NCBI GenBank assembly: GCA_048320885.1
Contig: JBLWFJ010000001.1
Span: 5,697,697 to 5,761,696 of the forward strand
Length of the DNA stretch: 64,000 nucleotides
Source of the DNA: Nannocystaceae bacterium ST9
GTDB taxonomy: Bacteria; Myxococcota_A; Polyangia; Nannocystales; Nannocystaceae
Direction of reading: 5' to 3'
Shown here piece by piece: positions 764 through 57,205 of the stretch. The translations under genes were made by a program, and so were the position numbers. A model generated the notes under the pieces. It worked only from the letters and a program-made list of their open reading frames with translations, ran no database searches and was not told where the DNA came from. How positions within the stretch are numbered: the first letter of the stretch is position 1; each line of letters starts with the position of its first letter.

Positions 764-1573
764 TCAGGCGTGATCGGCCGGGGTCGGGGTCGCACCCTCG
801 ACGGCCAGCGAGATCCGCCACAGGCCGAGGCCGAGCGCGAGCAGCCCGGCGAGCCGGGCCACCCAAAGAGCGCCGCCGCCCATCGCCACGCCGGTCGGGC
901 TGATCACCAGCACCAGCGCCGCGATCCCGACCAGGATCTGCAAGGCATCGATCAGCGCCCCGGCGAAGAGCCACAGCGGTCGACGCAGCACGTGCAGCAG
1001 CGCGCACAGGTGGGTCTTCGGGTGCATCGGTCGGGCCTGCTCGAGCACGACCGCGACCCGTGCCCGATCGAGCGCCAGCGTGGGGATCGCCGCGAGCACG
1101 ATCGCCAGCGGCAGCCCGCTCGGACCGAAGCTGGCCAGCGCGGCCGCGGCCAGACCCCCGAAGATCGCGCGCGGGACCAGACCGTAGAGCGTCTGCACGA
1201 TCATCGCGGCGAGGTGCTGGCCGCTCGCGCGTCCGAGCTCGCCGGCGCGGGTCGGTCCGTGCAGGCGGGTGATCACGGCCGGGCCGACCACGATCGCGAA
1301 CACGACCGCCAGCATCGCGCTGCTCGCCAGCGAGGTCGCGATCGCGGCCGCGACCGCGGGGTCGTGGATCAGCAATTCGACGAGCGCCCGCAGCCGGTGG
1401 CCGTCGTCGAACCAGGTGAAGGGACCCATCGCCGCCTTGCCGACCGCGCGGACCGGGAGCGCGAGCAACCACGCGAACACCAGCTGACCGATCCACAGGG
1501 CGAGCAGCAGGCCGGGGGCTCGCAGCACGCGAACGAGCGCGCGCGCGGGTCGAGTGCGGGGCGTGGTCGTCAC
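764..1573 (-). CDS. Polytopic integral membrane protein of unknown function
   Basis: This is the C-terminal 269 codons of track ORF 764..1948. The 5' extension is Arg-rich nonsense. The GTG start at 1571-1573 overlaps the upstream gene's TGA as GTGA. The product has multiple hydrophobic helices, for example LLLALWIGQLVFAWLLALPV and IAALVLVISPTGVAMGGGALWVARLAGLLALGLGLW. Confidence 0.5.
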   Translation of the reverse strand: MTTTPRTRPARALVRVLRAPGLLLALWIGQLVFAWLLALPVRAVGKAAMGPFTWFDDGHRLRALVELLIHDPAVAAAIATSLASSAMLAVVFAIVVGPAVITRLHGPTRAGELGRASGQHLAAMIVQTLYGLVPRAIFGGLAAAALASFGPSGLPLAIVLAAIPTLALDRARVAVVLEQARPMHPKTHLCALLHVLRRPLWLFAGALIDALQILVGIAALVLVISPTGVAMGGGALWVARLAGLLALGLGLWRISLAVEGATPTPADHA

Positions 1574-3837
1574 AGGCCCAGCCCTCCGAGCGCGGCGAGA
1601 TCGGCCGCTTGTGCGACGTCGCCGAGCCAGCCGGTCAGCGCGTCGTCCTCGTCCTCGGCGCGCTCGCGCGACCACGCGGCGTCGTCGAGCCGGCGCGGCG
1701 CGACGTGGAGCTTGCGGCGAGGATCGAGCACGGCTCGAACCACGCGGCCGGCGAAGAGCAGGGGCTCGCTCGGCGCCCGGCCGTCCCACAGGCGCAGCTC
1801 GGTGCTGCCGTCGGCGAACTCGACCAGGACTTCGACCGGGACCACGAAGTCGCCGCGGCGCTGAACCACGACCACGCCCTCGACCTCGTCGTCGGCCAGC
1901 TCGGCGATCGGCTTGCCCCACGTGTCGCTGGTCGGGGCGCTCTGCCACTCGCTCGGGCCTTCGCTCGGGCTGCGGCCGAACACGCGATCGAGCGCGCGAC
2001 GGCCCTCGATCTCGAGCGGCGAGCGCTCGGGCGCTCCGGACTCGTCAGCGCGGCGATGCCAGCCGCCGTGCCCGAGCTTCGGACGATTGAGCACCTCGAT
2101 CAGCTGGACGTCGACCACGCTCGCGCCGCGCAGGCCCTCGTCGAGGAATTCGCGCAGGTCGAACCATACGCTGCCGGGCTCGCCCGCGCCGGCCAAGCGG
2201 ACCTCGCTGTCGCGCACCGACTCGGGATCGCCGGCCCGGTAGTGCTCGAGGATCGTCGCGATCAGGATCCGCTCGAGCTCGGCCCCGGTCGGGTGACTGA
2301 AGCGGGCATGCGCGGCGTAGGCCCGCATGCCGGCGTCGAAGGGCTCGGCGCCGACCAGCTCGCGCAGGGTCATGAACAGCGCCGCGGTCTTCTGGTAGGT
2401 GAGCACCCCGTAGGCGTCGTCTTGCAGCGGTGAGAAGCGATCGGCGGGGCGATCGATCGCGCCATGATCGGCGGCCATGCTCAGCGAGATCATGCCGATG
2501 TCGACCACGCTGAGCTCGTGGCCGAGCACGCGCACGACCCAAGGATCTCCGCCGTGGCCGTCCATGTAGGCCAGGTTGTTGGAGAGCGTGTTCATGCCCT
2601 CGTCGAGCCAGGGCTGGGCGTGCTCGTTGGACGCGAACAAGCCCTGGAAGTACTGGTGGCCGAATTCGTGGACCGTCGTGAACAGCCCGCTGAGGCGCTC
2701 GGTGATCAGCCAGCTCGGCATCCACTCGGGATCGGCGATGTCCGAGGTGGTGATGAAGGTCGGGTACTCCATGCCGCCGGCCCCCTCGGCGCCCTCGGGC
2801 GGATGGACCACGGTGATCGTCGACCAGGGGTAGGGGCCGAAGCGCTCCTGCATGCTGGTGATCGTCATGGCCAGCGCGTCGAGGTGGGCCTGGCCATCGC
2901 CGGCGTGCTCGGGCTGGAGCAGTTGGCGGACCCGGATGCCGTCGACCTCGCCCCAGTGCTCGACGAAGTCGGGATCGGCGGCCCAGGCGAAGTCGTGGAC
3001 CATCGCGGCCCGGTAGCGCAGGCGCGTGCGGGTCTCGTCGCCCTCGACCGCCGCTTCGCCGACGCGCACGCCGGTCGCCCCGACGACCATCTCGGCCGGC
3101 ACGTCGAGCTGGACCTCGTAGTTGCCGAAGTCGGCGTAGAACTCCGAGTAGAGCCCGAAGGTGTGGGCCTGCCAGCCGCCGGCCTCCTCGAGCACGGCGA
3201 TCTTCGGATACCACTGACCGGCCATGTGAAAGTCGTCGTAGTAGCCGGTCCGCGCGAACACTTGGGGCAGGCGGGTGACGAACTCGATCTCGAGCACGAT
3301 CGACTCGCCCGGCCCGAGCGGCCGCGCGAGCGCGACGCTCATGGTCGAGGGCTCGTCGTCCTCGGCGAACGCGAGCGGCGTGCCGGCCGGGGTCGGGTTC
3401 TCGAACCCGACGAAGAGCGCCTCGTCGATCGGCTGGGCGATCTGATCGACCCGGCGGACCTCGACGAAGCCCCAGCGCTCGCGGGCGAACTTCTGACCGC
3501 GGTGCCGGCCGCGGGCCTGGCTCATCCACGCGGTGTCCTCGGCCCGAAACCCGTTCATGTAGAGGTGGAAGGGCAGGCGATCGACGCTGCGCTTGGTCCG
3601 GTTGCGCCAGGCCAGGCGCAGCGTGCCGGTGATCTCGTGCCGCTCGGCGTCGAGGCGCGCGTCGATCCAATAGTCGGCGACCCGGGCGTGATCGGGGACC
3701 TCGCCGCGCACACCCGGAGCGCGCAGCGGATCCGTGGGCTCGGGCACCGGCTCGCTGGTCGCGCTCGGCGTGGCGTCGTCGCAGCCCGCGAGCGCGAGCA
3801 CGATGGCGAGCGAGCAAGCTCGAAGGGGGGCGAGCAC
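1570..3837 (-). CDS. M1-family zinc aminopeptidase (gluzincin) lipoprotein
   Basis: Signal peptide with lipobox (LALAGCDD). HEFGHQYF zinc-binding motif with a downstream E (WLDEGMNTL). GGMEYP exopeptidase-type motif. 755 aa. Confidence 0.85.
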   Translation of the reverse strand: MLAPLRACSLAIVLALAGCDDATPSATSEPVPEPTDPLRAPGVRGEVPDHARVADYWIDARLDAERHEITGTLRLAWRNRTKRSVDRLPFHLYMNGFRAEDTAWMSQARGRHRGQKFARERWGFVEVRRVDQIAQPIDEALFVGFENPTPAGTPLAFAEDDEPSTMSVALARPLGPGESIVLEIEFVTRLPQVFARTGYYDDFHMAGQWYPKIAVLEEAGGWQAHTFGLYSEFYADFGNYEVQLDVPAEMVVGATGVRVGEAAVEGDETRTRLRYRAAMVHDFAWAADPDFVEHWGEVDGIRVRQLLQPEHAGDGQAHLDALAMTITSMQERFGPYPWSTITVVHPPEGAEGAGGMEYPTFITTSDIADPEWMPSWLITERLSGLFTTVHEFGHQYFQGLFASNEHAQPWLDEGMNTLSNNLAYMDGHGGDPWVVRVLGHELSVVDIGMISLSMAADHGAIDRPADRFSPLQDDAYGVLTYQKTAALFMTLRELVGAEPFDAGMRAYAAHARFSHPTGAELERILIATILEHYRAGDPESVRDSEVRLAGAGEPGSVWFDLREFLDEGLRGASVVDVQLIEVLNRPKLGHGGWHRRADESGAPERSPLEIEGRRALDRVFGRSPSEGPSEWQSAPTSDTWGKPIAELADDEVEGVVVVQRRGDFVVPVEVLVEFADGSTELRLWDGRAPSEPLLFAGRVVRAVLDPRRKLHVAPRRLDDAAWSRERAEDEDDALTGWLGDVAQAADLAALGGLGL

Positions 3838-3842
3838 CCGGC

Positions 3843-4451
3843 ATGCCTACCATCGCGAGACTCGAGGGATCAAACGGTAGACTGGCGAAGATGAACGAAC
3901 GCCCCGCAACTCGCGAGCTCGCTCGCTTCGAGTTCGACGAGCACGGCTTGCAGGCGTGGGCGCGGCGGCTCGGCGCACGGCTTCGCGGCGGCGACGTGCT
4001 GCTCTTGGTCGGCCCGATGGGCGCGGGCAAGACCACCTTCGCGCGAGCGCTCGCCGAGGGCCTCGGCGTCGATCGACCCGATCGCGTGTCGAGCCCGACC
4101 TACACGGTCTGCATGGTTCATCGCGGCCCGATCGGCATGGTTCACGTCGACCTGTTTCGGCTGATCGAGGCCGAGTCGGCGGCGCGCGAGGGTGACGAAT
4201 CGGGGGCCCCGGGCGCCCGCGCGGTCCTGAGTTCGGCCTTCGAGGCGCTGGGCCTCGAACAGGGCGAGCTGCCTCCCCCGGGGCAGATCTTGCTCGTCGA
4301 GTGGGCCGATGCCTGGGCCGATCCCCCCGCCGAGCACCTCCTGATCACCCTCGAAGGGGTCCCCGACAGTGAGCATTCGCGTCGAATTGGGGTGCTGGGG
4401 GCCGGTTCTCGCTGGTCTACGGACGATCTGCTCGATCTCTGGAAAGTGTAG
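3843..4451 (+). CDS. tsaE: tRNA threonylcarbamoyladenosine (t6A) biosynthesis protein TsaE (YjeE-type P-loop ATPase). The start may be the ATG at 3891.
   Basis: Walker A GPMGAGKTTFARALAEGLGV, and the SSPTYTVCMVH...VHVDLFRL motifs typical of TsaE/YjeE. Confidence 0.8.
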   Translation: MPTIARLEGSNGRLAKMNERPATRELARFEFDEHGLQAWARRLGARLRGGDVLLLVGPMGAGKTTFARALAEGLGVDRPDRVSSPTYTVCMVHRGPIGMVHVDLFRLIEAESAAREGDESGAPGARAVLSSAFEALGLEQGELPPPGQILLVEWADAWADPPAEHLLITLEGVPDSEHSRRIGVLGAGSRWSTDDLLDLWKV

Positions 4452-4492
4452 TGATTTCAAAGGCTTAGATCACGTCGATCAAGGCGGTTCGA

Positions 4493-4518
4493 GGGGGCCG
4501 ATCGGCAGATCTGCCCCC
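4493..4518 (+). terminator. GC-rich hairpin 42 nt downstream of the tsaE stop. It has no U-tract. Candidate intrinsic terminator.
   Basis: GGGGGC(c)GATC-ggca-GATC(t)GCCCCC: an ~10-bp stem with one mismatch and a 4-nt loop, in an AT-richer intergenic stretch. Confidence 0.3.
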
Positions 4519-4718
4519 AGTGCCCGCCAAAGGCCCGCGGACGACGAATTTGCCTTTGCAAGCAGACACTCATGCGTTTATGGTCCCCGCAGGTCGCGGC
4601 GGCGGGCGAGGACCCAACCTCAGCGAAGCCGCCGAAATGGTCAGTCGACCCCTTCCGGGTCGAAATTTCACCAGTTCTCACACGAACGCGCAAAACGCAC
4701 ACGAGAGAGGTCCCCGTC

Positions 4719-4910
4719 ATGGCAGCCAACAAACCCAAGGAAATCGTCGTCGTCGGCTCGAAGATCAAGGAAGTCATCCGCGAGGCTGGGCTTCGCAGCG
4801 ATGGCGAGCTGGTCTCGGCGGTGTCGGAGAAGGTCCACGAGATGCTCCAGGCCGCGATCCACCGCTGCACGAGCAACGGCCGCAGCACCGTGCGCCCGCA
4901 CGATCTGTAG
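4719..4910 (+). CDS. 63-aa single histone-fold DNA-binding protein (DUF1931 / Bdellovibrio HBb-like bacterial histone)
   Basis: MAANKPKEIVVVGSKIKEVIREAGLRSDGELVSAVSEKVHEMLQAAIHRCTSNGRSTVRPHDL aligns along its whole length to archaeal HMfB-type histone-fold helices (KIKEVIREAGL vs GRIIKDAGAERVS; AAIHRCTSNGRSTVRPHDL vs EAIKLARHAGRKTIKAEDI). It is preceded by a lower-GC promoter-like region. The longer track ORF 4572..4910 has an N-terminal extension that is not protein-like. Confidence 0.6.
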   Translation: MAANKPKEIVVVGSKIKEVIREAGLRSDGELVSAVSEKVHEMLQAAIHRCTSNGRSTVRPHDL

Positions 4911-4944
4911 TACGCCCGGCCGCGAGAGCGGCCACCCACTTCAC

Positions 4945-4977
4945 CGACACGCGCGAGTCCATCGGACTCGCGCGTGT
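4945..4977 (+). terminator. Perfect 15-bp GC-rich inverted repeat with a 3-nt loop, 35 nt after the stop of the histone-fold gene
   Basis: GACACGCGCGAGTCC-atc-GGACTCGCGCGTGTC. No U-tract. It lies between the small gene and rlmKL. Confidence 0.45.
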
Positions 4978-5003
4978 CTCGCGATAGGCTTCACGACTCT
5001 GCG

Positions 5004-7205
5004 ATGAGCGAACCCCTCGAATTCTTCGTCACGGCCCCGCACGGCGCGGAAGACCTGCTGGTCGACGAGCTGCGGGCGCTCGGCATCGAGACCAAGCCGC
5101 GGGTCGGGGGGACGAGCTTTCGCGGCACCCTCGAAGACGGCATGCGGGCGGCGCTGTGGCTGCGCACCGCCAGCCGATTGTTGCTCGAGCTCGCCGAGCT
5201 GCCGGCCGAGGACGGCGATCGTCTCTACGCGGCCGCGCGCACGATCGATTGGACCGAGCAGCTCGAGCCCGGGGCGACCTTCGCCGTGCAGGCGTCCGGC
5301 ACCGGCCACATCGACAACAGCCACTTCGCCGCGCTGCGGGTGAAGGACGCGATCGTCGATCAGCTGCGCGAGCGCTGGGGCGAGCGGCCCGACGTCGACA
5401 TCGCCGAGCCCGACCTCGCGCTGCGCGTGCACCTGCGCGGCGATCGAGCCCGGCTCAGCCTCGATCTCGGCGGCGAGGGCCTGCATCGCCGGGGCTATCG
5501 CGTCGAGCAGGGCGCGGCGCCGCTGCGCGAGAACCTGGCGGCGGCCGTGCTGCTGCGGGCCGGTTGGACCGGCGAAGGCACGCTGCTCGATCCCTTCTGC
5601 GGCTCGGCGACCCTGCTGATCGAGGCGGCCTGGCTCGCGGCCGACGTCGCGCCCGGCCTGCAACGCCGGCGCTGGGGCTTCACGCGCTGGCCGGGCCGCG
5701 ACGAAGCGACCTGGAAGCGCTTGGTCGGCGAGGCCGAGCGGCGGCGCAGCGAAGGCCTCGCGCGGCTGGCCGGCCGCAGCCCCTTGCTCGGCTTCGACGC
5801 CGACAGCCGCACGATCCGGGCCGCGATCGCCTGCATCGAGGCCGCGGGTCTGCGTGGGCGCGTGCACGTCGAGCGGCGCGAGCTGGCCGACCTCGTCGCG
5901 CCCGCGGGCGAGCCCGGGCTGATCGTCTGCAATCCGCCTTGGGGCGAACGGATCGGCACGCGCCGCGAGCTCGAGCGGCTCTACGCCAGCTTCGGCGCGC
6001 TGCTGCGCGAGCGTTTCGTCGGCTGGGAGGTCGCGCTGCTGGCCGGCGATCCCGGGCTCGGCCGCTTCTTGGGCATGACCGCCCATCGCCGCAACGTGCT
6101 GCACGACGGCCCGATCGCCGCGCAGATCCTCCGCATTCACGTCGAGCCGGCCGGGCCTCCGCGTCCGCCTCCCGAGGCCAAGCCGCGCTCGGAGGGGGCT
6201 GCCGCGTTCGCCAACCGCCTGCACAAGAACCGCAAGAAGCTGGCGAGCTGGCTCGAGCGCGAGGGCGTCGGTTGCTACCGGCTCTACGACGCCGACATCC
6301 CCGAGTACAACCTCGCGCTCGATCTCTATCGCGTCGAGCCCGAGGGCTCCGGGCCCGGCGAGTCCGAGCCGCTCGTGCACGCGCACGTGCAGGAGTACGC
6401 CCCGCCGCGCCAGCTCGATCCCGAGAAGGCCCGCCTGCATCTGCGCGAGGCGCTGGCGGTGATCCGCGAGGACCTCGAGCTGCCGCGCGAGCGCGTGCAC
6501 CTCAAGCGACGCGAGCGGCAGCGCGGGCGCTCGCAGTACGAGAAGCTCGATCAGGCCGGCCAGGAGTTCGTCGTGCGCGAGGGCCCGGCCCGCTTCCTGG
6601 TCAACTTCGAGGACTACCTCGACTCCGGGCTCTTCCTCGATCACCGCCCGCTGCGTGCCCGCCTGCGCGAGCTCGCGGCCGACAAGCGGATGCTCAATCT
6701 GTTCTGCTACACCGCGACGGCCTCGATCCACGCCGCGCTCGGTGGGGCCCGCAGCACGACCAGCGTCGATCTCTCGCGCACCTACCTCGAGTGGGCCGAG
6801 CGAAACTTCGCGCTCAATCGCATGCCGGTCGCGCAGGCCGAGTCGTCGCATGGCCCGATGGCCCGGCATCGGCTGCTGCGCGCCGACGTGATCGACTGGC
6901 TGAGTCGGCCGAGCCACGAGCGCTGGGATCTGATCTTCTGTGATCCGCCGAGCTACTCGAACTCGAAGCGGATGCAGCACGACTTCGACGTCCAGCGCGA
7001 CCACCCCGACCTGATCGCGCGCTGCCTCGATCGCCTGGCCCCCGGCGGGCTCTTGGTGTTCTCGACCAACCTGCGCAGCTTCGAACTCGCGCCGCGCCGA
7101 CTGGCTTCGGACGTCGAGATCGAGGATTGGACCAAACCGAGCATCCCCAAGGACTTCGAGCGGTCCGAGCGGATCCATCGCTGCTTCTTGCTGCGCCGGC
7201 GCTGA
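5004..7205 (+). CDS. rlmKL: Bifunctional 23S rRNA (m2G2445 / m7G2069) methyltransferase RlmKL (RlmL/YcbY family)
   Basis: N-terminal THUMP-plus-methyltransferase region (DPFCGSATLLIEAA, VCNPPWGERIG) and C-terminal second methyltransferase region (LNLFCYTATASIHAALGG, IFCDPPSYSNSK). 734 aa from the ATG at 5004. The track ORF begins at the GTG at 4974, which sits inside the hairpin. Confidence 0.85.
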   Translation: MSEPLEFFVTAPHGAEDLLVDELRALGIETKPRVGGTSFRGTLEDGMRAALWLRTASRLLLELAELPAEDGDRLYAAARTIDWTEQLEPGATFAVQASGTGHIDNSHFAALRVKDAIVDQLRERWGERPDVDIAEPDLALRVHLRGDRARLSLDLGGEGLHRRGYRVEQGAAPLRENLAAAVLLRAGWTGEGTLLDPFCGSATLLIEAAWLAADVAPGLQRRRWGFTRWPGRDEATWKRLVGEAERRRSEGLARLAGRSPLLGFDADSRTIRAAIACIEAAGLRGRVHVERRELADLVAPAGEPGLIVCNPPWGERIGTRRELERLYASFGALLRERFVGWEVALLAGDPGLGRFLGMTAHRRNVLHDGPIAAQILRIHVEPAGPPRPPPEAKPRSEGAAAFANRLHKNRKKLASWLEREGVGCYRLYDADIPEYNLALDLYRVEPEGSGPGESEPLVHAHVQEYAPPRQLDPEKARLHLREALAVIREDLELPRERVHLKRRERQRGRSQYEKLDQAGQEFVVREGPARFLVNFEDYLDSGLFLDHRPLRARLRELAADKRMLNLFCYTATASIHAALGGARSTTSVDLSRTYLEWAERNFALNRMPVAQAESSHGPMARHRLLRADVIDWLSRPSHERWDLIFCDPPSYSNSKRMQHDFDVQRDHPDLIARCLDRLAPGGLLVFSTNLRSFELAPRRLASDVEIEDWTKPSIPKDFERSERIHRCFLLRRR

Positions 7206-26034: not shown

Positions 26035-27639
26035 TCAGCTTCGGACGAGCCGATCGAAGAGCGCTCGCTCGATCGCCTCGTCGCTCGGCTGCTCGGCGAC
26101 CGCGTCGACCCGCACGCCCATGTCGACCAGCGCGGCCGCGGTGACCGGGCCGATCGTCACGACCTGACTCGCGCTCACCCAGGCGCGGACCTCGGCGTCG
26201 TCGAAGCGCTCGGCCAGCGTCGCGAAGAAGTGCTTGGCCGTGCGGCCGCTGGCGAACACGATCGCGTCGAAGCCCTCGCCGCCCTCGTCGCTCGGGCGCA
26301 GCGACTCGAGCAACAATTCGGGCACGCGCGGGCGCAGGGTCGAGTAGCCGACGATCACGTCGAGCCGGCCCCCGGCCGCGCGCAAGGCCGCGGCGAGCGA
26401 ATCTCGACCTTCGTCGGCGCGGACTTGCAGCCAGCGGCGGTCGAGCAGTCGGTGACTCGCGAGCAGCTCGACCAGCCCCTCGGAGGTCGCGAGCGTGGGC
26501 ACGAGATCGGGCCGCAGTCCGCCGGCCAGGCAGGCTTGGAACGTCGCCGCACCGATCGCGATCACCTGCCGACCGGCGAGCGCTCGCACGTCGCGACCGA
26601 CGCGTGCGAGGCCCTCGAGCAGGGCCTCGGCGCCGCGCGGGCTCGACACGATCACGCCGGCGTAGTCGGCCAGATCCGCGAGCGCTCGCTCGAGCGCCTC
26701 GCGCTGGTCGGCCGGCGCCGGGCCGAACTCGAGGCAGGGCACGACCGCCACGTCGGCCCCGGCGGCGGCGAGGCGACGCGCGAGATCGGCCGAGCTCTCG
26801 GCGGCCCGGGTCACGACGATCCTCCGACCATGCAGCGGCCGCTGTTCGAGCCAGGCGATCTGCTCGCGCACGCGCACGACGTCGCCGACGACCATGACCG
26901 CGGGCGGGCGCAGGCCGGCGGCGGCGATCCGCTCGGCGATGTCGGCCAGGGTTCCGACCAGGGTCTGCTGGATCCCGCGGGTGCCCCAGCGGATCACGGC
27001 GGTCGGCGTGCTCGGGTCGCGACCGGCGGCGATCAGCTTGGCGGCGTTGGTCGCCGCGTTGCGGATCGACATCATCAGGACCAAGGTGCCCGCGCTGAGG
27101 GCCAGGTGGGTCCAGGCGACCGAGAGACCGGTCTTGTCGTAGGCCTCCCAGCCCGACACGAAGCTGACCGAGGGCGTGTGATCGCGGTGCGTGATCGGGA
27201 TCCCGGCCGACTCCGGGGCGGCGATCGGCGACGACACGCCGGGCACGAATTCGAAGGGCACGCCATGTTCGCGCAAGACGCTGGCCTCCTCGGCACCGCG
27301 TCCGAACATCATCGGATCGCCGCCCTTGAGCCGGACCACGTGGCGACCGGCCAAGCCGTGCTCGATCAGCAGCTCGTTGATCCGGGCCTGGTCCAGACGG
27401 ACGCCCTCGTGCGGGCCCTCGAGCCGCTGGACGATCTGCGCGTCCGGCCGGCAGTGGAGCAGGAGTGCAGGATTGACCAGGTAGTCGACGACGACCACGT
27501 CCGCGCGGGCGAGTCGATCACGACCGGCGAGGGTCAGCAATTCGGGATCCCAGGGCCCGGCACCGACGAGCGAGACGAGTCCGACCCTGCTGCGCGGTGG
27601 GGCAGTGTGGTCGTGAGGGGGGTCGAGCTCGGCGGGCAC
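26035..27639 (-). CDS. Bifunctional uroporphyrinogen-III C-methyltransferase (CobA/SUMT) / uroporphyrinogen-III synthase (HemD) fusion
   Basis: N-terminal half VGLVSLVGAGPWDPELLTLAGRDRLARADVVVVD...GGDPMMFGRG is the SUMT tetrapyrrole methylase. C-terminal half RRIVVTRAAESSADLARRLAAAGADVAVVPCLEF is HemD. GTG start at 27637-27639. The longer track ORF carries an unsupported N-terminal extension. Confidence 0.8.
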   Translation of the reverse strand: MPAELDPPHDHTAPPRSRVGLVSLVGAGPWDPELLTLAGRDRLARADVVVVDYLVNPALLLHCRPDAQIVQRLEGPHEGVRLDQARINELLIEHGLAGRHVVRLKGGDPMMFGRGAEEASVLREHGVPFEFVPGVSSPIAAPESAGIPITHRDHTPSVSFVSGWEAYDKTGLSVAWTHLALSAGTLVLMMSIRNAATNAAKLIAAGRDPSTPTAVIRWGTRGIQQTLVGTLADIAERIAAAGLRPPAVMVVGDVVRVREQIAWLEQRPLHGRRIVVTRAAESSADLARRLAAAGADVAVVPCLEFGPAPADQREALERALADLADYAGVIVSSPRGAEALLEGLARVGRDVRALAGRQVIAIGAATFQACLAGGLRPDLVPTLATSEGLVELLASHRLLDRRWLQVRADEGRDSLAAALRAAGGRLDVIVGYSTLRPRVPELLLESLRPSDEGGEGFDAIVFASGRTAKHFFATLAERFDDAEVRAWVSASQVVTIGPVTAAALVDMGVRVDAVAEQPSDEAIERALFDRLVRS

Positions 27640-27768
27640 GGGCGAAACATAGCCGGTGATTCGCCGAGTTCGGGAGTGGGACTCCGCGACCTGCGCAAAT
27701 CGCCCTCGTCGTCGAGGCCCCCAGTTGGCGAGGCAGGACGTGTATCGTCGTCCCGGCGGGCGAGCTCG

Positions 27769-30700
27769 ATGACCTTGCAGATCACGCTCGACGGCTACCG
27801 AACGACGCGACTGCTGCGAGGCTCGGGGAGCGCCCAGGTGTTCGAGGCGATCCGCGAGTTCGATCAGCGCAAGGTCGTCGCCAAGGTCTACGACCTCGAA
27901 GCCAACGAGGGGCTCGAAGCCCGCGTTCAGCACGAGTTCCGGCTGATCCACGGGCTGGTCGTCGAGGGCGTGGTTCGGGCGCTGGCGCTCGAGCGGGCCG
28001 GCAGCCGCCTGGTGCTGGTGCTCGACTGGTGCGAGGGCGTCAACCTCGAGGAGTACTGTGCCGGCCAGCCGCTCGCGATCGACGAGTTCTTCGCGATCGC
28101 GCTGCAGGTCACGCGGGCGCTGACCGACGTGCACGCCCAGCGGGTCATCCATCGCGATCTCAAGCCGACCAACCTGCTGATCGATCCCGAGACCAAGCGG
28201 GTGGCGATCGCCGACTTCGGGATCTCGGTCCTGCTCGAGAGCGAGCGCGAGCGGATCAACGATCCGCGCGTCGTCGAGGGCACGCTGCCTTATGTCTCAC
28301 CCGAGCAGACCGGTCGAACCGGCCGCGAGGTCGACTTTCGCAGCGACCTCTACTCGCTCGGCGTCACCTTCTACGAGCTCTTGACCGGTCGCCGACCCTT
28401 CGAGGCCGACACGCCGCTCGAGCTGATCCATGCCCACCTCGCGCGCCGGCCCGAGTCGCCGCAGTGGCTGCGGCCCGAGCTGCCCACGCCGCTCTCGGCC
28501 CTGGTCATGAAGCTGCTGGAGAAGGCGCCCGAGCGCCGCTACCAGTCGGCGGCCGGGCTGCATCAGGATCTGCTCGCGCTGCGGGCCGCGATCGTGCGCG
28601 GGGAGCCGCTCGATGGCTTCGTGCTCGCGCGCCACGACGTACCGAGCACCCTGCAGCTGCCGCATCGGCTCTACGGTCGAGTCCGCGAGACCGATCACCT
28701 GATCCGCGAGTTTCGCAAGGCGGCGCAGGGCAGCACGCGGCTGGTGGTGATCAGCGGGCCCTCGGGCATCGGCAAGACCGCGCTGCTCGAGCAGCTGGTC
28801 GAGCCAGTGCTCGGTCGGCGCGGCTACTTCGCGCGCGGTCGCTTCGAACGCGACGGCGTCGAGCAGCCCTTTACCGCGATCGTCGGTGCGTTGACCGAGC
28901 TGGCCGATCAGCTGCTGACCGAGAGCGACGAGCGGCTGGCTCGCTGGCAGGGTCTGTTGCACGAGCAGCTCGGCTCGCTGACCGCGGTGCTCAGCCGACT
29001 GGTCCCGAAGTTCGAAGCGGTCCTCGGGGCCGAGCCGGCCGCGCCCGAGATCGGCGTGTCCGAGGTTCGTCATCGCGTGTTGCTGGCCTGCCTGCGCCTG
29101 CTCGGGGCGGTCGCTCGGCCCGAGCATCCCTTGGTCCTGGCGATCGACGATCTTCAGTGGGCCGATCCCGGCAGCTGCGAGCTGCTCGAGACCGTGCTGG
29201 CCGAGCGCAACCTCGCCTTGCTGGTCGTCGGCACGCTCGGCGTGACCGACCCCGAGCTGCCGATCGTCAACTTGTTCGCGCGCCTCGATCAAGCCGAGCG
29301 CGAGCACGAGCTGCTCGAGCTCGGTCCGCTGACTCGGGCCGACGTCGCGGCGCTGGTCGCCGACGTGACCGCGCGCGGCGATCGTGACGACGAGAGCTTG
29401 GTCGATCTGCTGGTTCGCCGCGCCGGCGGCTCGCCGATGCTGACCCGCCAGCTGCTGATCCACCTCGCCGATCTCGGCCTGCTCTGGCCGAGCGCCGAGG
29501 GCTGGTCGTGGGATCCGGCGATGATCGAGACCGCCGGGATCCCCGAGGACAGCCTCGAGATGATGACGGCCAAGCTCGCCCGCTTGACCGAGCGCCCGCG
29601 CGAGCTGCTGACCATGGCCGCGGTGCTCGGCGAGCGCTTCGAGATCCAGCTGCTCGAGGAGCTGGCCGGCGCCGACATGGTCGCCGAAGGGCTCGGCGTG
29701 CTGCTCGAAGAGGGCCTGCTGACCTCGATCAGTCCGCGCCAGTTCGCGTTCAGTCACTCGCGCATCCGCGAGGCCGCCTACGTCGAGCTCGACCACACCC
29801 AGCTCCGCGAGCTCCACCTCGCGGTCGGCCAGCTCCGGCTCTCGCACCTCGGATTCGGCGATCTCGGCGAGCACATCTTCGATCTCGTCGACCACCTCGA
29901 TCGCGGCTACGGCCTGCTCCCGCTCGGTCCGACCCCCGGAGCCCGGCCGGATCGCCGGGCCGCGGTCGCGCTCGCCGACGTCGGCGACCTCGCCTACGAG
30001 CTGGCCGAGCTCAACGGCTTGGCCGGCTACAAGGCGCTCGACTCGGCCGCGGCCCACCTCGCGGTCCAGTACCTCGAGGTCGGCGTGGCCCTGCGCGAGC
30101 TGGTCTTGCCCTTCCCGGGCGTCGACGAGGTCGGCTACTCGCTGGCGCTCTCGCTCGAGCTCGGCTTGGCCCAGGCGCTCGTGCTCAGCGGCGAGATCGC
30201 GCGTGGTGACGCCTGCTTCGTCGCGTTGATGGGGCGCTCGCTGACCGAGGTCGATCGCGGCCGCGTGATCATCAAGCGCTACGAGATGCTCGCGGCCGCG
30301 GGCCGCTACGACGAGGCGATCGCGTTCGGACTCGGAGCGCTGCGCGAGCTCGGCGTCGACATCCCGCGTTCGCCGAGCAAGTTCGAGATCGGCGTGGCCT
30401 TGGTTCGAATGGCCGCGGTCTTGCGCCGGCTCGAGCTGGCCAGCCTGCACGAGCGACCCTGGGCCAAGCAGGCGCGTGCCCGCGTGACCATGGAGCTGCT
30501 CGCGGCGCTCTCGGCCACGGTCTACACCGCCGACGGCGGGCTCTTCGTGATCCTGGTCGAGCGTCAGCTCGCGACCTTCCTCGCCCACGGTCGACATCCG
30601 GTCGTGCCGATGGTGCTGGTTCAGGCCGGGTTGCTGCTCTCGGCCGGGCTCGAGCTGCGCGAGTTCGGGCGCGCGGTCGGTCAAGTCGGCGAGCTGATGG

Positions 30701-33381
30701 CCGAGCGCGAGGGCCAGACCTGTCCGCGCCAGCGCGTGGCGGTCATCGCCGCGTTCGCGCGGGTCTGGCTCGAGCCGAACCGCGAGATCATCCCCTTGGT
30801 GCGTCGCGCGACCGCGCTGGCGCTCGAGGCCGGCGACCTCGAATTCGCCGGCTACTCGCTGTCCTTGCAGGTCTCGCTCGAGCTGCTCGCCGGCTCGCAC
30901 CTGCGCGTGGTCGAGCAACAGATCGAGGCCGGTCAGCGCTGGCTGCAACGCTGGCAAGGTCACGATCCGGTCGGCGGCCTGACTCTGGTTCAGCGCTTCT
31001 GCAACTGCCTGGCCCGCGAGCCGCCGAGCGAGCGCGAGCTCGATCCGCTCGAGTGCGCCGCGCTGCTCGGCAAGGCCAGCGAGGCCTCGCGGCAGCACGC
31101 CCACCTGCTCACCGCGCTGACCTTGTTCGTGTTCGATCGCCGACGCGAGGCGCTCTCGCTGCTGCGAGCCAACGTCGACGCGCTCGAGCGCAGCCTGCTC
31201 GGCTCGTGGCACATCCCGGTCGGCGTGACGCTCCACGGCATGGCCCTGGCCGTCGAGTACCCGCGGATGGGTCGACGCGAGCGCTGGCTCGCGCTCGAGC
31301 GGCTGCGCCACGACGAGCGGCGGCTGCGAGGCTGGGCCGAGCAGGGCCCGGCCAACTTCGAACATCGCGCCAACTTGCTGGCCGCCGAGATCGCGGTGAT
31401 CGAGGGCGACTTTCGCCGGGCGCTCGAGCTGCTCGGTCGCGCCCGCCGGCAGGCCGCGGTCCAGCGCTGCATCCTGTTCGAGGCGCTGGCGCTCGAGCGC
31501 TGCGCCGAGCTCTGCCGCGATCACGGGCTCGACGATCTCGCCCTCGGCCCGCTGCGCGAGGCTCACGAGCGTTGGCACTACTGGGGTGCGTTCGCCAAGG
31601 TCGACGCGCTCGAGCGGCGCTGGCCCGAGCTGCGCGAGCGGGTCCGAGGCTCGCGCGAGCCCGGCGACCCCAGCAGTCACGGCGGGACCAGCACCTCGAC
31701 CAGCAGCCGTGCGCTCGACACCGCGACCCTGCTCAAGACCTCGCAGGCGATCGCCGAGGACATCCGGCTCGAGGAGGTCGTCGATCGCGTGCTGGCCAGC
31801 GCGCTCGAGAACGCGGGCGCCGAGCGAGGCGCGTTGATCCTGCCGATCCGGCGTGGGCTCGGGCTCGCGGCCCTGGTCTCGGCCGACGGCGTCTCGCACA
31901 GCTTTCTGCACCAGCCGCTGGCGCTCGAGCAGGCCGGCGAGCGGGTCCCGGTCTCGCTCGTCCACTGGGTCGAGCGGACCCGCGAGGCGCTGGTCATCGA
32001 CGACGCGAGCGCCGACCTGCGCTTCACCGCCGACAGCTACGTGCGCGTCGGTCGGGTGCGATCGGTGCTCTGCCTGCCGATCGTCAAGCACAGCCGCCTG
32101 GTCGGCCTGCTCTACCTCGAGAACCGGCTGAGCACCGGCAGCTTCACCGGCGAGCGGCTCGAGATCCTGCGCGTGCTGATGGCTCAGGCCGCGAGCGCGA
32201 TCGAGAACGCCCAGCTCTACGAGGCGCTGCGGACCAGCGAGGTCCGCTGGCGCTCGCTGGTCGAGGGCCTGCCCGACATCGTCGCGCTGATCGATCGCAA
32301 GGGTCAGATCGAGTTCATCAACCACGTCGACGACGACACCGCTCGCTCGCGGACGATCGGGTTCGCGGCCAACGAGTTCATCGGCGCCGAGTTTCGCGAC
32401 GAAGCCCGCGCGGCGATGGCCCGAGTCCTGCGCTTGGGCACGCTGGCCGAGTTCGACATGCTCGCGACCCTGCCGGGCAGCGAGCCGCGCTGGTACTCGA
32501 CCCGGCTCGCGCCGATCGTCGTCGATGGCCGAGTCGAGCGCGTGATCGTGGTCGCTACCGACGTGACCGAGCGCCGGCAGGCCGAGCTCGACAAGCGCCA
32601 GCTCGAGACCCAGCTGCGCCAGCAGCAGCGGCTCGAGTCGATCGGCACCTTGGCCAGCGGCGTGGCCCACGAGATCAACAACCCGGTCCAGGGCATCATG
32701 AACTACGCCGAGCTGATCGCCGAGACGCCCGGCGCGAGCGTCGAGATCCGCGAGTACGCCGGCGAGATCGATCGCGAGTCGCAGCGGGTCGCGACGATCG
32801 TCCGCAATCTGCTGGCGTTCTCGCGGCAAGAGGGCGAGCGAGGGGCTCGCGCGACCACGATCAAGGCCATCGTCGACGGCGCGCTATCGCTGATCCGCAC
32901 CGTGCTGCGCAAGGATCAGATCGGGCTCGACATCGGGTTCGCCGAGGACCTGCCCGAGCTGATCTGTCGCCCCCAGCAGATCCAGCAGGTGCTGATGAAC
33001 TTGGTCACCAACGCCCGCGACGCGCTCAACGCCCGCTTCGTCGGGTTCGACGAGCGCAAGCGCATCGAGATCCGTGCGAGCTCGTTCGTGCGCTTCGACC
33101 GAACCTGGATCCGCCTGAGCGTGTGCGATCGGGGCGGGGGAGTGCCCGAGCACGCCGTGCCGCACATCTTCGATCCCTTCTTCACGACCAAGGGGCGCGA
33201 TCAGGGCACCGGGTTGGGGTTGGCGGTCAGCCACGGGATCGTCACCGAGCACGGCGGCGAGCTGCGACTCGACAATCGACCCGGCGTGGGCGCCTGCTTC
33301 GACGTCGATCTGCCGGCGGACGGCTCGGGCATCGAGGCTCGCCCGCTCGAACCCAAGCGCGAGGAGGGCGAGGAGGCATGA
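27769..33381 (+). CDS. Giant multidomain sensor, paralog 1: Ser/Thr protein kinase - STAND/AAA ATPase - TPR-like helical region - GAF - PAS - histidine kinase (HisKA plus HATPase_c)
   Basis: Kinase motifs HRDLKPTN, DFG, and APE (SPE). P-loop GPSGIGKTALL. GAF region (CLPIVKHSRLVGLLYLEN). PAS region (WRSLVEGLPDIVALIDRKGQIEFINH). H-box SGVAHEINNP. N, G1 and G2 boxes (LVTNARDAL, DRGGGVPE, GTGLGLAVSHGIV). 1870 aa. The upstream part of the 2383-aa track ORF is antisense to cobA-hemD and was rejected. Confidence 0.85.
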   Translation: MTLQITLDGYRTTRLLRGSGSAQVFEAIREFDQRKVVAKVYDLEANEGLEARVQHEFRLIHGLVVEGVVRALALERAGSRLVLVLDWCEGVNLEEYCAGQPLAIDEFFAIALQVTRALTDVHAQRVIHRDLKPTNLLIDPETKRVAIADFGISVLLESERERINDPRVVEGTLPYVSPEQTGRTGREVDFRSDLYSLGVTFYELLTGRRPFEADTPLELIHAHLARRPESPQWLRPELPTPLSALVMKLLEKAPERRYQSAAGLHQDLLALRAAIVRGEPLDGFVLARHDVPSTLQLPHRLYGRVRETDHLIREFRKAAQGSTRLVVISGPSGIGKTALLEQLVEPVLGRRGYFARGRFERDGVEQPFTAIVGALTELADQLLTESDERLARWQGLLHEQLGSLTAVLSRLVPKFEAVLGAEPAAPEIGVSEVRHRVLLACLRLLGAVARPEHPLVLAIDDLQWADPGSCELLETVLAERNLALLVVGTLGVTDPELPIVNLFARLDQAEREHELLELGPLTRADVAALVADVTARGDRDDESLVDLLVRRAGGSPMLTRQLLIHLADLGLLWPSAEGWSWDPAMIETAGIPEDSLEMMTAKLARLTERPRELLTMAAVLGERFEIQLLEELAGADMVAEGLGVLLEEGLLTSISPRQFAFSHSRIREAAYVELDHTQLRELHLAVGQLRLSHLGFGDLGEHIFDLVDHLDRGYGLLPLGPTPGARPDRRAAVALADVGDLAYELAELNGLAGYKALDSAAAHLAVQYLEVGVALRELVLPFPGVDEVGYSLALSLELGLAQALVLSGEIARGDACFVALMGRSLTEVDRGRVIIKRYEMLAAAGRYDEAIAFGLGALRELGVDIPRSPSKFEIGVALVRMAAVLRRLELASLHERPWAKQARARVTMELLAALSATVYTADGGLFVILVERQLATFLAHGRHPVVPMVLVQAGLLLSAGLELREFGRAVGQVGELMAEREGQTCPRQRVAVIAAFARVWLEPNREIIPLVRRATALALEAGDLEFAGYSLSLQVSLELLAGSHLRVVEQQIEAGQRWLQRWQGHDPVGGLTLVQRFCNCLAREPPSERELDPLECAALLGKASEASRQHAHLLTALTLFVFDRRREALSLLRANVDALERSLLGSWHIPVGVTLHGMALAVEYPRMGRRERWLALERLRHDERRLRGWAEQGPANFEHRANLLAAEIAVIEGDFRRALELLGRARRQAAVQRCILFEALALERCAELCRDHGLDDLALGPLREAHERWHYWGAFAKVDALERRWPELRERVRGSREPGDPSSHGGTSTSTSSRALDTATLLKTSQAIAEDIRLEEVVDRVLASALENAGAERGALILPIRRGLGLAALVSADGVSHSFLHQPLALEQAGERVPVSLVHWVERTREALVIDDASADLRFTADSYVRVGRVRSVLCLPIVKHSRLVGLLYLENRLSTGSFTGERLEILRVLMAQAASAIENAQLYEALRTSEVRWRSLVEGLPDIVALIDRKGQIEFINHVDDDTARSRTIGFAANEFIGAEFRDEARAAMARVLRLGTLAEFDMLATLPGSEPRWYSTRLAPIVVDGRVERVIVVATDVTERRQAELDKRQLETQLRQQQRLESIGTLASGVAHEINNPVQGIMNYAELIAETPGASVEIREYAGEIDRESQRVATIVRNLLAFSRQEGERGARATTIKAIVDGALSLIRTVLRKDQIGLDIGFAEDLPELICRPQQIQQVLMNLVTNARDALNARFVGFDERKRIEIRASSFVRFDRTWIRLSVCDRGGGVPEHAVPHIFDPFFTTKGRDQGTGLGLAVSHGIVTEHGGELRLDNRPGVGACFDVDLPADGSGIEARPLEPKREEGEEA

Positions 33382-33478: not shown

Positions 33479-36400
33479 ATGCCTCTGACCCTCGATGGAT
33501 ATCGGCTCTTGCGGAGCTTGCGAGCCACTCGCAACGCGCAGGTGATGCTGGCCGAGCGCGAGTCCGACGGCTTGCCGGTCGTCGTCAAGGCCTACGTCAT
33601 CGAAGGCCACCGGGGCATCGAGGCCCGCGTCGAGCACGAGTTCGCGTTGATCCGAGCGCTCGACTGCAAGGGCGTGGTTCGGGCGCTCGCGCTCGAGCGA
33701 TCCGGTGATCGCATGGTGCTGATCCTCGAGCGCCACGCCGGGGTCGACCTCGCACGCCACACCGAGGGCCGGCCGATGGCGATCCCCGAGTTCCTGCGCG
33801 TCGCTCGGGCGATCGCCGAGATCCTCGCCGAGGTCCACGTCCACTGGGTGATCCATCGCGACATCAAGCCGTCGAACATCCTGATCGACCCGGCGACCGG
33901 CGAGGTCGCGCTGGCCGACTTCGGGATCTCGGTGCTGCTCGAGAGCGAGCGGGCTCATCTCCACGACCCCGCGTTGATCGAGGGCACGCTGCCCTACGTC
34001 GCACCCGAGCAGACCGGCCGGACCGGGCACGAGGTCGACTTTCGCAGCGACCTCTACTCGCTCGGCGTCACGTTCTACGAGCTGCTCACCGGTCGGCGGC
34101 CCTTCGTCGCGAGCTCGCCGCTCGAGCTGATCCACGCCCACCTCGCGCGCCGACCCGACCCACCGGTCTGGCTGCGCCCCGAGCTGCCCAAGCCGCTCTC
34201 GGATCTCGTGCTCGAGCTGCTCGAGAAGGCGCCCGAGCGGCGCTACCAATCGGCGCGCGGGCTCGCGGCCGACCTCGCCGCGATCGCCGAGATGCTCGCG
34301 CGCGGCGAGCCGCTCGACGACTTCGAACTCGGGCGCTTCGACGTACCCAGCTCGATCCACCTGCCGCATCAGCTCTATGGCCGCGAGCGCGAGCTCGAGC
34401 TGCTCGGCGACGAATTTCGGGCGGCCGCGCTCGGTGGCCCGCGCCTGGTCGTGCTGCGTGGTCCGGCCGGGATCGGCAAGACCGCGCTGCTCGGCGAGCT
34501 GATCGAGCCGGTGCTCGGTCGCCGCGGCCACCTGATCCGCGGCAAGTTCGACGAGGGCGCCAAGCAGCCGCTCGAGGCGATCGTGCAAGCGCTCTCGGGG
34601 CTCGCCGATCAGCTGCTGACCAGCAGCGACGCCGAGCTGGCCGGTTGGCGTGCGCGTCTGCTCGCCTCGCTCGGGACCCTCGCCGAGGTCGTCCGCGAGC
34701 TGGTCCCGAAGTTCGACACCCTGCTCGGCGAGCTCGAGCCGGTCGCCGTCGAGTCCGAGCTCGGCGCGGCCGGCCTGCGCAACCGCATGTGGCTGGCGAT
34801 CGCCCGCGTGCTGGCGGTCGTGGCCCGGCCCGAGCATCCGCTGGTGCTCGCGCTCGACGATCTGCAGTGGGCGGACGTCGCCAGCGGCGAGCTCTTGGCC
34901 GGGTTGCTCACCGAGCCGGCTGCGGCGCTGTTGATCGTCGGGACCGCCCGGGCCGCGAGCGAGGTCGGCATCGTCGAAGAAGAGGTGCTCGCCGAGCTGC
35001 TCGAGCTGTGTCGAATCAACGCGGTTCCGACCCGGACCATCGAGATCGGCCCGCTCGGCAGCGAGTCGATGGCCGCGATGCTCTCGGTCATGCTCGGGCG
35101 CGAGCCGGGCGAGGTTCGCTCGCTGGTCGAGGTGCTCGGCCGCAAGACCGGCAACAACCCCTTCTTCGTCCAGCAGTTCCTGCTTCACCTGGTCGAGCGC
35201 GGGCTGCTCTGGGTCGAGGCGCAGGGCTGGTCGTGGGATCCGGCCGAGATCGAGGCCGCCGAGCTGCCGGCCGACAGCCTGGCGATGATGAGCACCAAGC
35301 TCGACGCGCTGCCCGACGAGCTGCGCGAGCTGGCGATGAGCGCGAGCGTGCTCGGGGTTCGCTTCGACGCCGAGTTGCTCGAGGCGGTGCTCGGCCGACC
35401 GATCGGCGCTCAGCTCCAGAAGCTGGCCGACGAGGGCTTGATCGCGCCGCGTGGTCGCGACTGGGTGTTCGGCCACGATCGGATCCGCGAGGCCGCCTAC
35501 GCGCACCTGAACGGCAAGCGCCGTCGCGAGCTGCACCTCGCGATCGGCAAGACCCTGCTCGGGCGGCAGGCCGAGCGCCCCGGCGTCGAGCCGGCCTGGC
35601 TCGAGATCGCCGAGCAGCTCGATCGCGGCCACGGCCTGGTCCCGCTGGTCGGCGAGGTCGACTCGCTCGAGGTTCGCGAGGCCCTGGCCAGCGTGTCGGC
35701 GGTCGCGATGCGGATCGACCAGGCCGAGCTGCACGTGCTGGCCGAGCTCAACGGTCGGGCCGGACTGCGGGCGCTGGCGACCGGAGCCCCGCGCAGTGCG
35801 GTCGGCCTGCTGCGCTTGGCCTCGGCGTTGCGCGAGGTCCCGGCCGGCGAATCATTCCAGATGCAGGCCAAGCTCCTGCCCGAGCACGCGCTGGCCGTCG
35901 AGATCGAGATCGGCCTGGGCGAGGCGCTGAGCCTGGTCGGCGAGTATGCGCTCGCCGATCGCTGCTATCGCGACCTGCTCGGGCGCCAGGACTCGCTCAC
36001 GCCGTCCGAGCTCGCGACCGTGGCGATCAAGCGCAACTGGCTCTTGCTGCTCAGCGGCGAGGGCGAGCAAGCGCTGCGCTCGGGCTGCGAGGTCCTGCGT
36101 CGGCTCGGGCTGGCGATCCCGGCTCGGATCACGCCGATGGCCGCCGCTCGGGCGGTGCTCGGCCTGCTCGTCGAGCTGCGCGCGAGTGGGCGCGAGCGCA
36201 TGCGTGGGCTGGCGCCGGTCGAGGATCCACGCGCGAGCGCGGCGATGGACGCCGGCCTGATGTTCGCGACCTCGGCCTACATCCACAGCCCCGAGCTCTT
36301 CGTGATCCTGATCGAGCGCCAGGTCGATCACCTGCTGCGCTACGGCGGGCACACCAGCGCGCCGCTGGTCCTGGCCAACGCCGGGCTGATCCTCGCCCAC

Positions 36401-54746: not shown

Positions 54747-54747
54747 C

Positions 54748-55431: not shown

Positions 55432-55533
55432 CGAATTACTTCCTATCGGGGCACATGGCCCGAAAATCGACCGGGAATGGCCGCGGCCGGGCGAGCACCC
55501 GGCCGCCGGCGTGGCCCCGAGGGGCCCGAGGGA

Positions 55534-55965: not shown

Positions 55966-56061
55966 GGCTCGGCCGGAGGGTACCAAAGCCGCGTGGTTTC
56001 TGACCAGCGAGTTGCGCCGTCGATGGGCGCTAGCGCACGTGCACACCCGCCGCGAGCGAGG

Positions 56062-57165: not shown

Positions 57166-57205
57166 GGGGACGTCGTCGCGCCAACGGGCGCGCGCCGCAG
57201 CGCTT

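Follow-up and report, generated by a model that had tools for sequence, protein, structure and literature searches.

A small gene beside tsaE in a Nannocystaceae genome encodes a predicted face-to-face histone of the HLp type

The Nannocystaceae are marine-type, large-genome, sterol-making myxobacteria. To our knowledge, the experimental characterisation of bacterial histones is confined to two lineages, Bdellovibrio (HBb) and Leptospira (HLp), and the solved members of the face-to-face (FtF) histone class are HLp and HTkC. An open reading frame in a stretch of 64,000 nucleotides from Nannocystaceae bacterium ST9 (hereafter the window) had been interpreted in an earlier note, made from the letters alone, as a single histone-fold protein of the Bdellovibrio HBb type. 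The locus raises the question of whether this reading frame is a gene, whether its product is a histone and, if so, to which class of prokaryotic histones it belongs. The reading frame and its ribosome-binding site are located as follows.

4705..4710, + strand: Shine-Dalgarno sequence GAGAGG, 8 nt 5' of the ATG
4719..4910, + strand: histone CDS of 63 aa, from ATG 4719 to TAG 4908-4910; predicted alpha3-truncated face-to-face (HLp-type) histone

Translation of the ORF gives the 63-aa product MAANKPKEIVVVGSKIKEVIREAGLRSDGELVSAVSEKVHEMLQAAIHRCTSNGRSTVRPHDL, with a pI of 9.0 and a net charge of +2, against a pI of 9.05 and a net charge of +2 for HLp. A scan of one genome per species allowed us to confirm 29 loci, originating from MAGs of Nannocystaceae and Polyangia, two strains of Enhygromyxa salina, Paraliomyxa miuraensis and one MAG labelled as Planctomycetota. 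Orthologues are 75-100% identical across the Nannocystaceae, including the cultured E. salina and P. miuraensis. Among 5.8 billion proteins searched, 191 relatives were retrieved, almost all of them 62-64 aa long and 70-100% identical, and those carrying a name belong to the Nannocystaceae or to other Myxococcota, E. salina among them. The identical 63-aa product was called independently on at least 23 contigs.

Comparison with the closest locus (L001) revealed a protein 100% identical to that of the window, whereas the neighbouring proteins are only 75-80% identical. The two genes differ by nine nucleotides in their last 57 codons, all nine in third position and synonymous, and third codon positions were the most changed in 27/27 comparisons. 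Such a substitution pattern points clearly to a protein under strong purifying selection. The homologous ATG is preceded by a purine-rich Shine-Dalgarno sequence (GAGG or AGGA) in nearly all of 27 loci, and the window, L001 and both E. salina strains, four taxa in all, have the block GAGAGGTCCCCGTCATG unchanged. Because the changes are synonymous and biased toward third positions, the ATG and the Shine-Dalgarno sequence are conserved and the product is called on many contigs, the ORF at 4719-4910 is a real gene, far beyond what a chance ORF would be. The small ORF described in the earlier note is thereby confirmed.

A search with Pfam and NCBIfam on both the 63-aa frame and a longer, 112-aa frame that overlaps it gave sub-threshold matches only. 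The family CBFD_NFYB_HMF, which covers archaeal nucleosomal histones and NF-Y, matched residues 31-63 only, with 17.9 bits for a gathering cut-off of 21.4, and membership was rejected on that score. DUF1931 reached 13.7 bits for a cut-off of 21.8. This family has the Aq_328-type pseudodimeric, doublet architecture while the window protein is a single fold of 63 aa, and membership was rejected for the low score and the missing doublet; 'DUF1931 domain-containing protein' is also the name that the PDB depositors gave to HLp. DUF5805 was likewise sub-threshold, with 16.0 bits. The DUF1931 or histone-fold matches that had been anticipated from a Pfam search do appear, but only under the curated cut-offs. 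The whole-length alignment with HMfB-type histones described earlier holds only in a loose sense, the Pfam match being confined to residues 31-63 and under its cut-off.

An AlphaFold2 monomer built on 29 homologues (mean pLDDT 80.9) contains three helices, alpha1 at residues 13-22, alpha2 at 29-52 and alpha3 at 60-62. Helix alpha2 has 24 residues in this model and alpha3 only three, as in the truncated-alpha3 histones, and the chain ends one residue past alpha3. Foldseek against the PDB returned HLp first (TM 0.75/0.83, rmsd 1.9 A), followed by HBb (TM 0.74), HTkC (TM 0.74), eukaryotic core histones, TAFs and the archaeal HMfA and HPhA, and all top matches are histones. The window protein is a histone fold, single and of the bacterial alpha3-truncated kind. 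On this point the earlier note was right, and none of the outcomes that it had named as speaking against a histone (no histone match, a non-histone model, an unconserved ORF) was found.

Two groups of alpha3-truncated prokaryotic histones can be distinguished, those forming FtF tetramers and the HBb-like 'bacterial dimers' (PMC11390915). The FtF definition includes a truncated alpha3 of 3-4 residues and a shortened alpha2, and the bacterial dimers, a category defined by sequence clustering, are without the conserved Arg and Asn of the dimer-dimer contact, R48 and N52 in HMM numbering (PMC11390915). The window protein was compared with solved structures by a single-sequence search (phmmer against the PDB) and with a profile from 29 homologues, with the following results.

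HLp (9qt0): single-sequence E 7.9e-10, profile E 2.9e-14
HBb (8cmp/8fvx): single-sequence E about 3e-4, profile E 1.7e-5
HTkC (9f2c): single-sequence E 0.089, profile E 1.1e-5

The phmmer alignment with HLp, a comparison that the earlier note had proposed, covers residues 1-62 without gaps and with identical numbering, at 38% identity. Ten residues are invariant in the 29 family members (S14, K15, R49, N53, R55, T57, V58, R59, P60 and D62). R49 and N53 align to R49 and N53 of HLp, and R49 also to R45 of HTkC; in HBb, Ser and Asp take the places of R49 and N53. The RxTxxxxD motif known as the RD clamp is present as R55-S-T57-V-R-P-H-D62, its R55, T57 and D62 being among the invariant residues. 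All orthologues stop at D-L, precisely where HLp stops at D-F, an important point, since the FtF interface includes the terminal carboxylate. The match to HLp, R49 and N53, the RD clamp, the C-terminus, the DNA contacts described below and the charge together identify the gene, at the level of sequence comparison, as encoding an HLp-type FtF histone and not an HBb-type one.

In HLp, the tetramer interface sets R49, S52 and N53 against R55, T61 and F63, with the RD clamp formed by R55 and D62 (PMC12701072). The window protein keeps R49, S52, N53, R55 and D62, and two interface positions are changed, T61 to H and F63 to L. In HTkC, the R45A mutant loses the tetramer (bioRxiv 10.64898/2025.12.06.692711). 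The DNA contacts of HLp are A13, S14, K15, K17, K21, T27, G29, T56 and T57; at the same positions the window protein has G, S, K, K, R, S, G, S and T. These DNA-contact residues are conserved.

Comparison with the known histones places HLp of Leptospira perolatii (PDB 9QT0/9QT1/9QT2; Hu et al. 2025, PMC12701072) closest to the window protein. Both are 63 aa long and share the alpha3-truncated fold, R49, S52, N53, R55, the R55-D62 clamp, the DNA-contact positions 13-15, 17, 21, 27, 29, 56 and 57, a C-terminus at the same place and a pI of about 9. They differ in their hosts (Spirochaetota for HLp, Myxococcota here), in the interface residues at positions 61 and 63 and in Cys50, invariant in the window family, where HLp has Thr. 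Their gene neighbourhoods also differ, with tsaE and an M1 peptidase here and smc, map and DUF350 in Leptospira, as does gene number: many Nannocystaceae have a second, Lys-tailed paralogue, and the two Leptospira species named in Hu et al. have a single histone.

HTkC, the FtF histone of the archaeon Thermococcus kodakarensis (PDB 9F2C), shares the alpha3-truncated fold and the arginine R45, equivalent to R49 here, but its identity is only about 26%, at a profile E of 1.1e-5 and a TM of 0.74. It has E at the position of N53 and another clamp, E49-R57-H58, and its host also has nucleosomal histones. With the archaeal nucleosomal histones HMfA and HMfB the window protein has both the histone fold and the loop motif of the RD clamp in common. 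In Foldseek, HMfA (1b67) and HPhA (1ku5) reached a TM of about 0.5; alpha2 is shorter in the window protein than in HMfA and HMfB, and alpha3 has 3 residues for about 10. An HMf-like four-helix-bundle interface for hypernucleosome growth is not expected.

The spacer of 267 nt between tsaE and the ORF is relatively A+T-rich, the GC content being 0.57-0.65 at 4350-4725 and 0.68-0.77 in the genes on either side; the AT-richer upstream region of the earlier note is true in this relative sense. Two elements can be recognised in it.

4508..4515, + strand: AGATCTGC motif, 5' of the promoter-like element; part of an 11-bp imperfect hairpin (4493-4518) just after tsaE
4556..4584, + strand: promoter-like element, -35 TTGCAA (4556-4561), 17-nt spacer and -10 TATGGT (4579-4584); no better hexamer pair within 300 nt upstream

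A generic sigma-70 scan of 4300-5200 found no promoter; the element scores 8/12 against the sigma-70 consensus and the scan needs 9/12. It was recognised only through comparison of orthologous loci, an equivalent hexamer pair lying 85-149 nt 5' of the ATG in 21/24 of them. The conserved core has the consensus CTTTnCAAG-N12-GGGTTTATnGT, of which the strict form misses the window itself, where GCGTTTATGGT stands instead of GGGTTTATnGT. A transcript start is predicted near 4591, with a predicted 5' UTR of about 125 nt. The sequence AGATC(T), in its fuller form AGATCT(C/G)C, occurs 72-96 nt 5' of the -10 hexamer in the window and in 13/21 anchored orthologous loci, and the AGATCTGC motif may be the site of a regulator or the 3' end of tsaE. 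The conserved element at 4556-4584 is presumed to act as a promoter, in line with the promoter region that the gene had been said to possess.

Downstream of the gene, two stem-loops follow one another.

4918..4933, + strand: first 3' stem-loop, GGCCGC-GAGA-GCGGCC, 6 bp with a GNRA-type loop
4946..4978, + strand: second 3' stem-loop, G+C-rich, 15 bp without mismatch and a loop of 3 nt

The counterpart of the first stem in L001 is GACCGC-GAAA-GCGGTC, in which both sides of one pair are changed and pairing is kept. The arms of the second hairpin (4946-4960 and 4964-4978; 15 nt each) are 100% complementary, and the 3' region folds with a z of -5.35, none of 200 shuffles folding as well; the perfect GC hairpin reported earlier is therefore there. 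It occurs once in the 64-kb window, which led us to reject a dispersed repeat as its source. No T-run follows it, and it is missed by a scan for consensus terminators; over 4300-5200 the scan gave terminator-like matches only inside rlmKL and on the minus strand. Most orthologous loci have one or two long hairpins of other sequence at this place, and in several cases a T-run follows. The 15-bp hairpin is probably a transcription terminator or an mRNA-stabilising hairpin. As rlmKL begins 26 nt past it, some read-through into that gene is possible. No Rfam family reached its gathering score anywhere in the window, with a chance-level match to P17 (E 0.19) around the gene, so that the 5' UTR and the hairpins do not belong to a known RNA family. 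No tRNAs were found in the window.

Examination of the neighbourhood revealed the following genes.

1570-3837, - strand: M1-family peptidase gene, further upstream
3843..4451, + strand: tsaE (t6A tRNA-modification ATPase), upstream; Pfam TsaE 1.6e-22
5004..7205, + strand: rlmKL (bifunctional 23S rRNA methyltransferase), downstream, NCBIfam PRK11783 2.8e-256

The order M1 peptidase (-), tsaE (+), histone (+) is found in 22/24 orthologous loci, and tsaE adjoins the histone gene in 23/24, even where TsaE identity falls to 36-55%. Five out of five exact-match contigs examined carry the neighbourhood Peptidase_M1, TsaE, histone and RlmKL; rlmKL lies 3' of the histone gene in only a subset of relatives. 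We regard the synteny of tsaE and the histone gene as gene order inherited within one family and not as evidence of a functional link. A tblastn search found no second histone copy in the 64-kb window, and another, for HU with an approximate query, gave one unconvincing match of 49 aa (E 0.006) inside a kinase gene.

Taken together, these data make it probable that the ORF product is a small nucleoid-associated histone of the alpha3-truncated FtF class, acting as a closed tetramer that wraps roughly 60 bp of DNA and expressed from its own promoter ahead of two 3' hairpins. Two chains would form a classical histone-fold handshake dimer, and two dimers would then close into a toroidal tetramer through contacts of R49, S52 and N53 of one chain with R55, residue 61 and residue 63, the C-terminal one, of the chain opposite. 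Along its basic rim the tetramer would bind the DNA backbone without sequence specificity and wrap it, using the 'paired ends of helices' (G13-S14-K15), K17 and R21 of alpha1, and S27, G29, S56 and T57 at the L1-L2 bridge. Tetramer formation and DNA wrapping are what we infer from residue conservation, by residue-level homology to HLp and HTkC. Transcription would proceed from the element at about 4556-4584, through a 5' UTR of about 125 nt, and the transcript would be ended or stabilised at the hairpins 4918-4933 and 4946-4978. The promoter-like element and the hairpins support a separately transcribed small gene, as judged by comparison of loci. The description 'highly expressed, monocistronic' may be apt, and the abundance of the protein, like the activity of the promoter and of the terminator, is presumed.

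The explanation that competes most directly with an FtF tetramer is a 'bacterial dimer' of the HBb type, which would stay a dimer and either bend DNA sharply or coat it end-on, as reported for Bd0055, with no tetramer. HBb (Bd0055 of Bdellovibrio bacteriovorus; PDB 8CMP, 8FVX) is, like the window protein, a bacterial singlet histone of the same alpha3-truncated superfamily, its match is significant (E 3e-4; TM 0.74), and the AlphaFold2 monomer does not separate the two classes. Both proteins carry the N-terminal VVxSKxK motif and an R-x-T-V...D loop L2, and the motifs cited earlier are indeed present, with EIVVVGSKIKEVIREAG for EVLVVTSKVKKLIKEKG in HBb and NGRSTVRPHD for DGRKTVMARD. The N-terminal likeness to HBb is thus real, but it is common to the whole alpha3 superfamily and not specific to HBb. 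Against the dimer, HLp outscores HBb by 5 to 9 orders of magnitude, and HBb is only about 27-28% identical to the window protein. R49 and N53, absent from bacterial dimers, are invariant in the family, and the chain ends as in HLp and HTkC, whose terminal carboxylate belongs to the interface, while the HBb chains (64-66 residues) run 4-6 residues past the aligned Asp as a C-terminal extension. HBb itself is dimeric and bends DNA. Membership in the HBb type was rejected on the strength of the weaker match and of the invariant FtF residues; HBb is not the closest class, and the assignment made in the earlier note is not supported. An HBb-like dimer is accordingly an unlikely outcome.

The main role of the protein could lie outside chromatin, as an RNA- or ribosome-associated factor tied to tsaE (tRNA t6A) and rlmKL (23S rRNA methylation), or as a locus-specific regulator. 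The adjacency of tsaE and the histone gene in 23/24 orthologous loci is in keeping with such a role, fusions to RRM_1 RNA-recognition domains are found among relatives of the histone family, and some histone-fold families do not bind DNA (PMC11390915). Yet every DNA-contact position of HLp is conserved, the gene, with a promoter-like element and 3' hairpins of its own, lies across a 267-nt gap from tsaE, the linkage to rlmKL is not conserved, and synteny inside a single family is weak evidence for a functional link; we consider a role of this kind very unlikely. Still less credible is the possibility that there is no 63-aa protein, the true product being the 112-aa frame from ATG 4572 or the ORF a chance one in G+C-rich DNA. 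The longer frame is open, and some gene callers give 90-103-aa versions in relatives. The stretch 5' of the Shine-Dalgarno sequence, which would encode its 49 extra residues, is nevertheless unconserved, close relatives differing there by indels, the ORF has no start codon other than the homologous ATG in 10/27 loci examined, and ATG 4572 falls within the spacer of the conserved promoter-like element. These observations led us to reject the 112-aa frame, and the purifying-selection pattern of the 63-aa ORF argues against a chance ORF. The doubt expressed earlier about the longer frame is settled in favour of the 63-aa product.

FtF histones were listed in 2024-2025 in Spirochaetota, Planctomycetota, Bdellovibrionota and Myxococcota (PMC11390915, PMC12701072). 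The HLp-type histone gene described here is a new, uncharacterised member of a class already reported for Myxococcota, and current concepts are unchanged for that reason. We found no paper in the literature characterising a myxobacterial FtF histone, and neither Enhygromyxa nor Nannocystaceae is named in the supplementary tables of Schwab 2024. The survey of Hocher 2023, which used Pfam at gathering cut-offs and Jackhmmer, names a single HBb-like protein of a Myxococcales MAG, and the sub-threshold Pfam scores are a likely reason for the omission of the Nannocystaceae family from such a threshold-based survey. Culturable organisms account for few of the bacterial FtF histones (Hu et al., PMC12701072). 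E. salina and P. miuraensis extend this short list, and these cultured species could become a third experimental system for bacterial histones. The HLp-type class is a fixed, very strongly conserved feature of the Nannocystaceae, and a 'hypothetical protein' or 'DUF1931 protein' annotated beside tsaE in this family can be read as an FtF histone.

Outside the window, many Nannocystaceae have a second histone paralogue with a Lys/Ala-rich N-terminal tail, whose gene lies in the cell-division cluster with ftsZ on one side and ftsQ/ftsA on the other. The variant encoded in the window has no tail, is linked to tsaE and is extremely conserved, the identical protein being found in several species. 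Tailed and tail-less paralogues keep the same interface residues, so they could form homo- or heterotetramers. A Nannocystaceae histone-variant system may be imagined on this basis, in which such tetramers differ in compaction and histones rather than HU are the main chromatin proteins; the invariant Cys50 beside the interface could then add redox control. We hold this wider picture to be rather doubtful. The search of 1.84 billion representatives with the family profile retrieved 818 relatives at E <= 1e-3, of which 152 at E <= 1e-10. These relatives include doublets that look secreted, with two histone folds behind a signal peptide, together with fusions of a signal peptide, RRM_1 and a histone, and H1/HC2-like Lys-rich tails fused to the histone fold.

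A search of related genomes and representative proteins revealed a second class of histone paralogue, distinguished by an N-terminal tail rich in Lys and Ala (for example MAKSTKKKAAAAPKKAREIVVVGSK..., pI 10.2). Members were found at three of the related loci and among the protein relatives:

L027, 4953-5174: Lys-tailed paralogue of Paraliomyxa miuraensis
L026, 3731-3955: Lys-tailed paralogue
L025, 1630-1842: Lys-tailed paralogue
Proteins P0099, P0110, P0114 and P0119: further members

These paralogues retain R49, N53, R55 and D62. In all three loci examined the gene lies between ftsZ and either ftsQ or ftsA, on the opposite strand. No Lys-tailed paralogue is present in the 64-kb window, and at least four genomes carry both this form and the tail-less, tsaE-linked copy; the two may constitute a bacterial histone-variant pair.

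The two forms also differ at position 50 (codon at 4866-4868 in the window). All 24 tail-less family members aligned have Cys50, within the motif R-C-x-x-N, whereas the Lys-tailed paralogues have Ala or Thr instead, and HLp, the solved histone of Leptospira perolatii, has Thr. Cys50 is flanked by residues of the tetramer interface, R49 before it and S52/N53 after it, and it could conceivably serve a structural or redox function.

In other relatives, a predicted signal peptide at the N-terminus precedes two histone folds in tandem (or one and a half):

L029, 4716-5138: signal peptide and histone doublet, on contig CBDCWP010000021.1 of a MAG labelled Planctomycetota
Proteins P0121, P0123, P0124, P0126, P0127, P0130, P0140, P0150 and P0200: further members

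The folds of these doublets are clearly derived from the Nannocystaceae-type sequence, and Cys is frequent in the linker. Histone doublets would be unusual if secreted or periplasmic. We found no mention of signal peptides in Schwab 2024, whose 'transmembrane' category may overlap with these proteins.

Fusions to other domains were also observed. P0122, P0129, P0149 and P0153 combine a signal peptide, an RRM_1 RNA-recognition motif (Pfam E-values of 2.8e-5 to 1.6e-14) and a C-terminal FtF-like (face-to-face) histone fold; P0131, P0138, P0168 and P0236 were added to this architecture by eye. In P0234, P0235, P0257, P0258 and P0205, AKK-type repeats spanning 50-80 residues lead into an FtF-like fold; the repeats resemble H1/HC2-like nucleoproteins, with a sub-threshold match to Pfam HC2 (28.5 bits, cut-off 40).

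Upstream of the histone gene, both in the window (4508-4515) and at 13 of the 21 orthologous loci that were anchored, the motif AGATCT(C/G)C precedes the -10-like element by 72-96 nt. It may be the binding site of a regulator, and in the window it doubles as one arm of an 11-bp hairpin (4493-4518) lying 3' of tsaE. As for tsaE itself, its longest ORF starts at ATG 3843 (+), 5 nt from GTG 3837 (-), the start of the longest ORF of a divergent M1 peptidase. This ORF encodes 202 aa, compared with the 168-172 aa proposed by gene callers in relatives, and its Pfam TsaE match begins at residue 33; the true start is probably further downstream.

Among the other large ORFs of the window, two very long ones, 54679-59136 (+; 1485 aa) and 20794-25878 (-; 1694 aa), gave no Pfam match at E <= 1e-5; they may either encode uncharacterised proteins or, in DNA this rich in G+C, be spurious frames. 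Three tandem paralogues encode giant signalling proteins:

26230-33381 (+): giant signalling protein 1
33479-39088 (+): giant signalling protein 2
39207-44855 (+): giant signalling protein 3

Each is about 1870-2380 aa long and carries, in this order, Ser/Thr protein kinase, AAA_16 (STAND-type ATPase), GAF, PAS, HisKA and HATPase_c domains.
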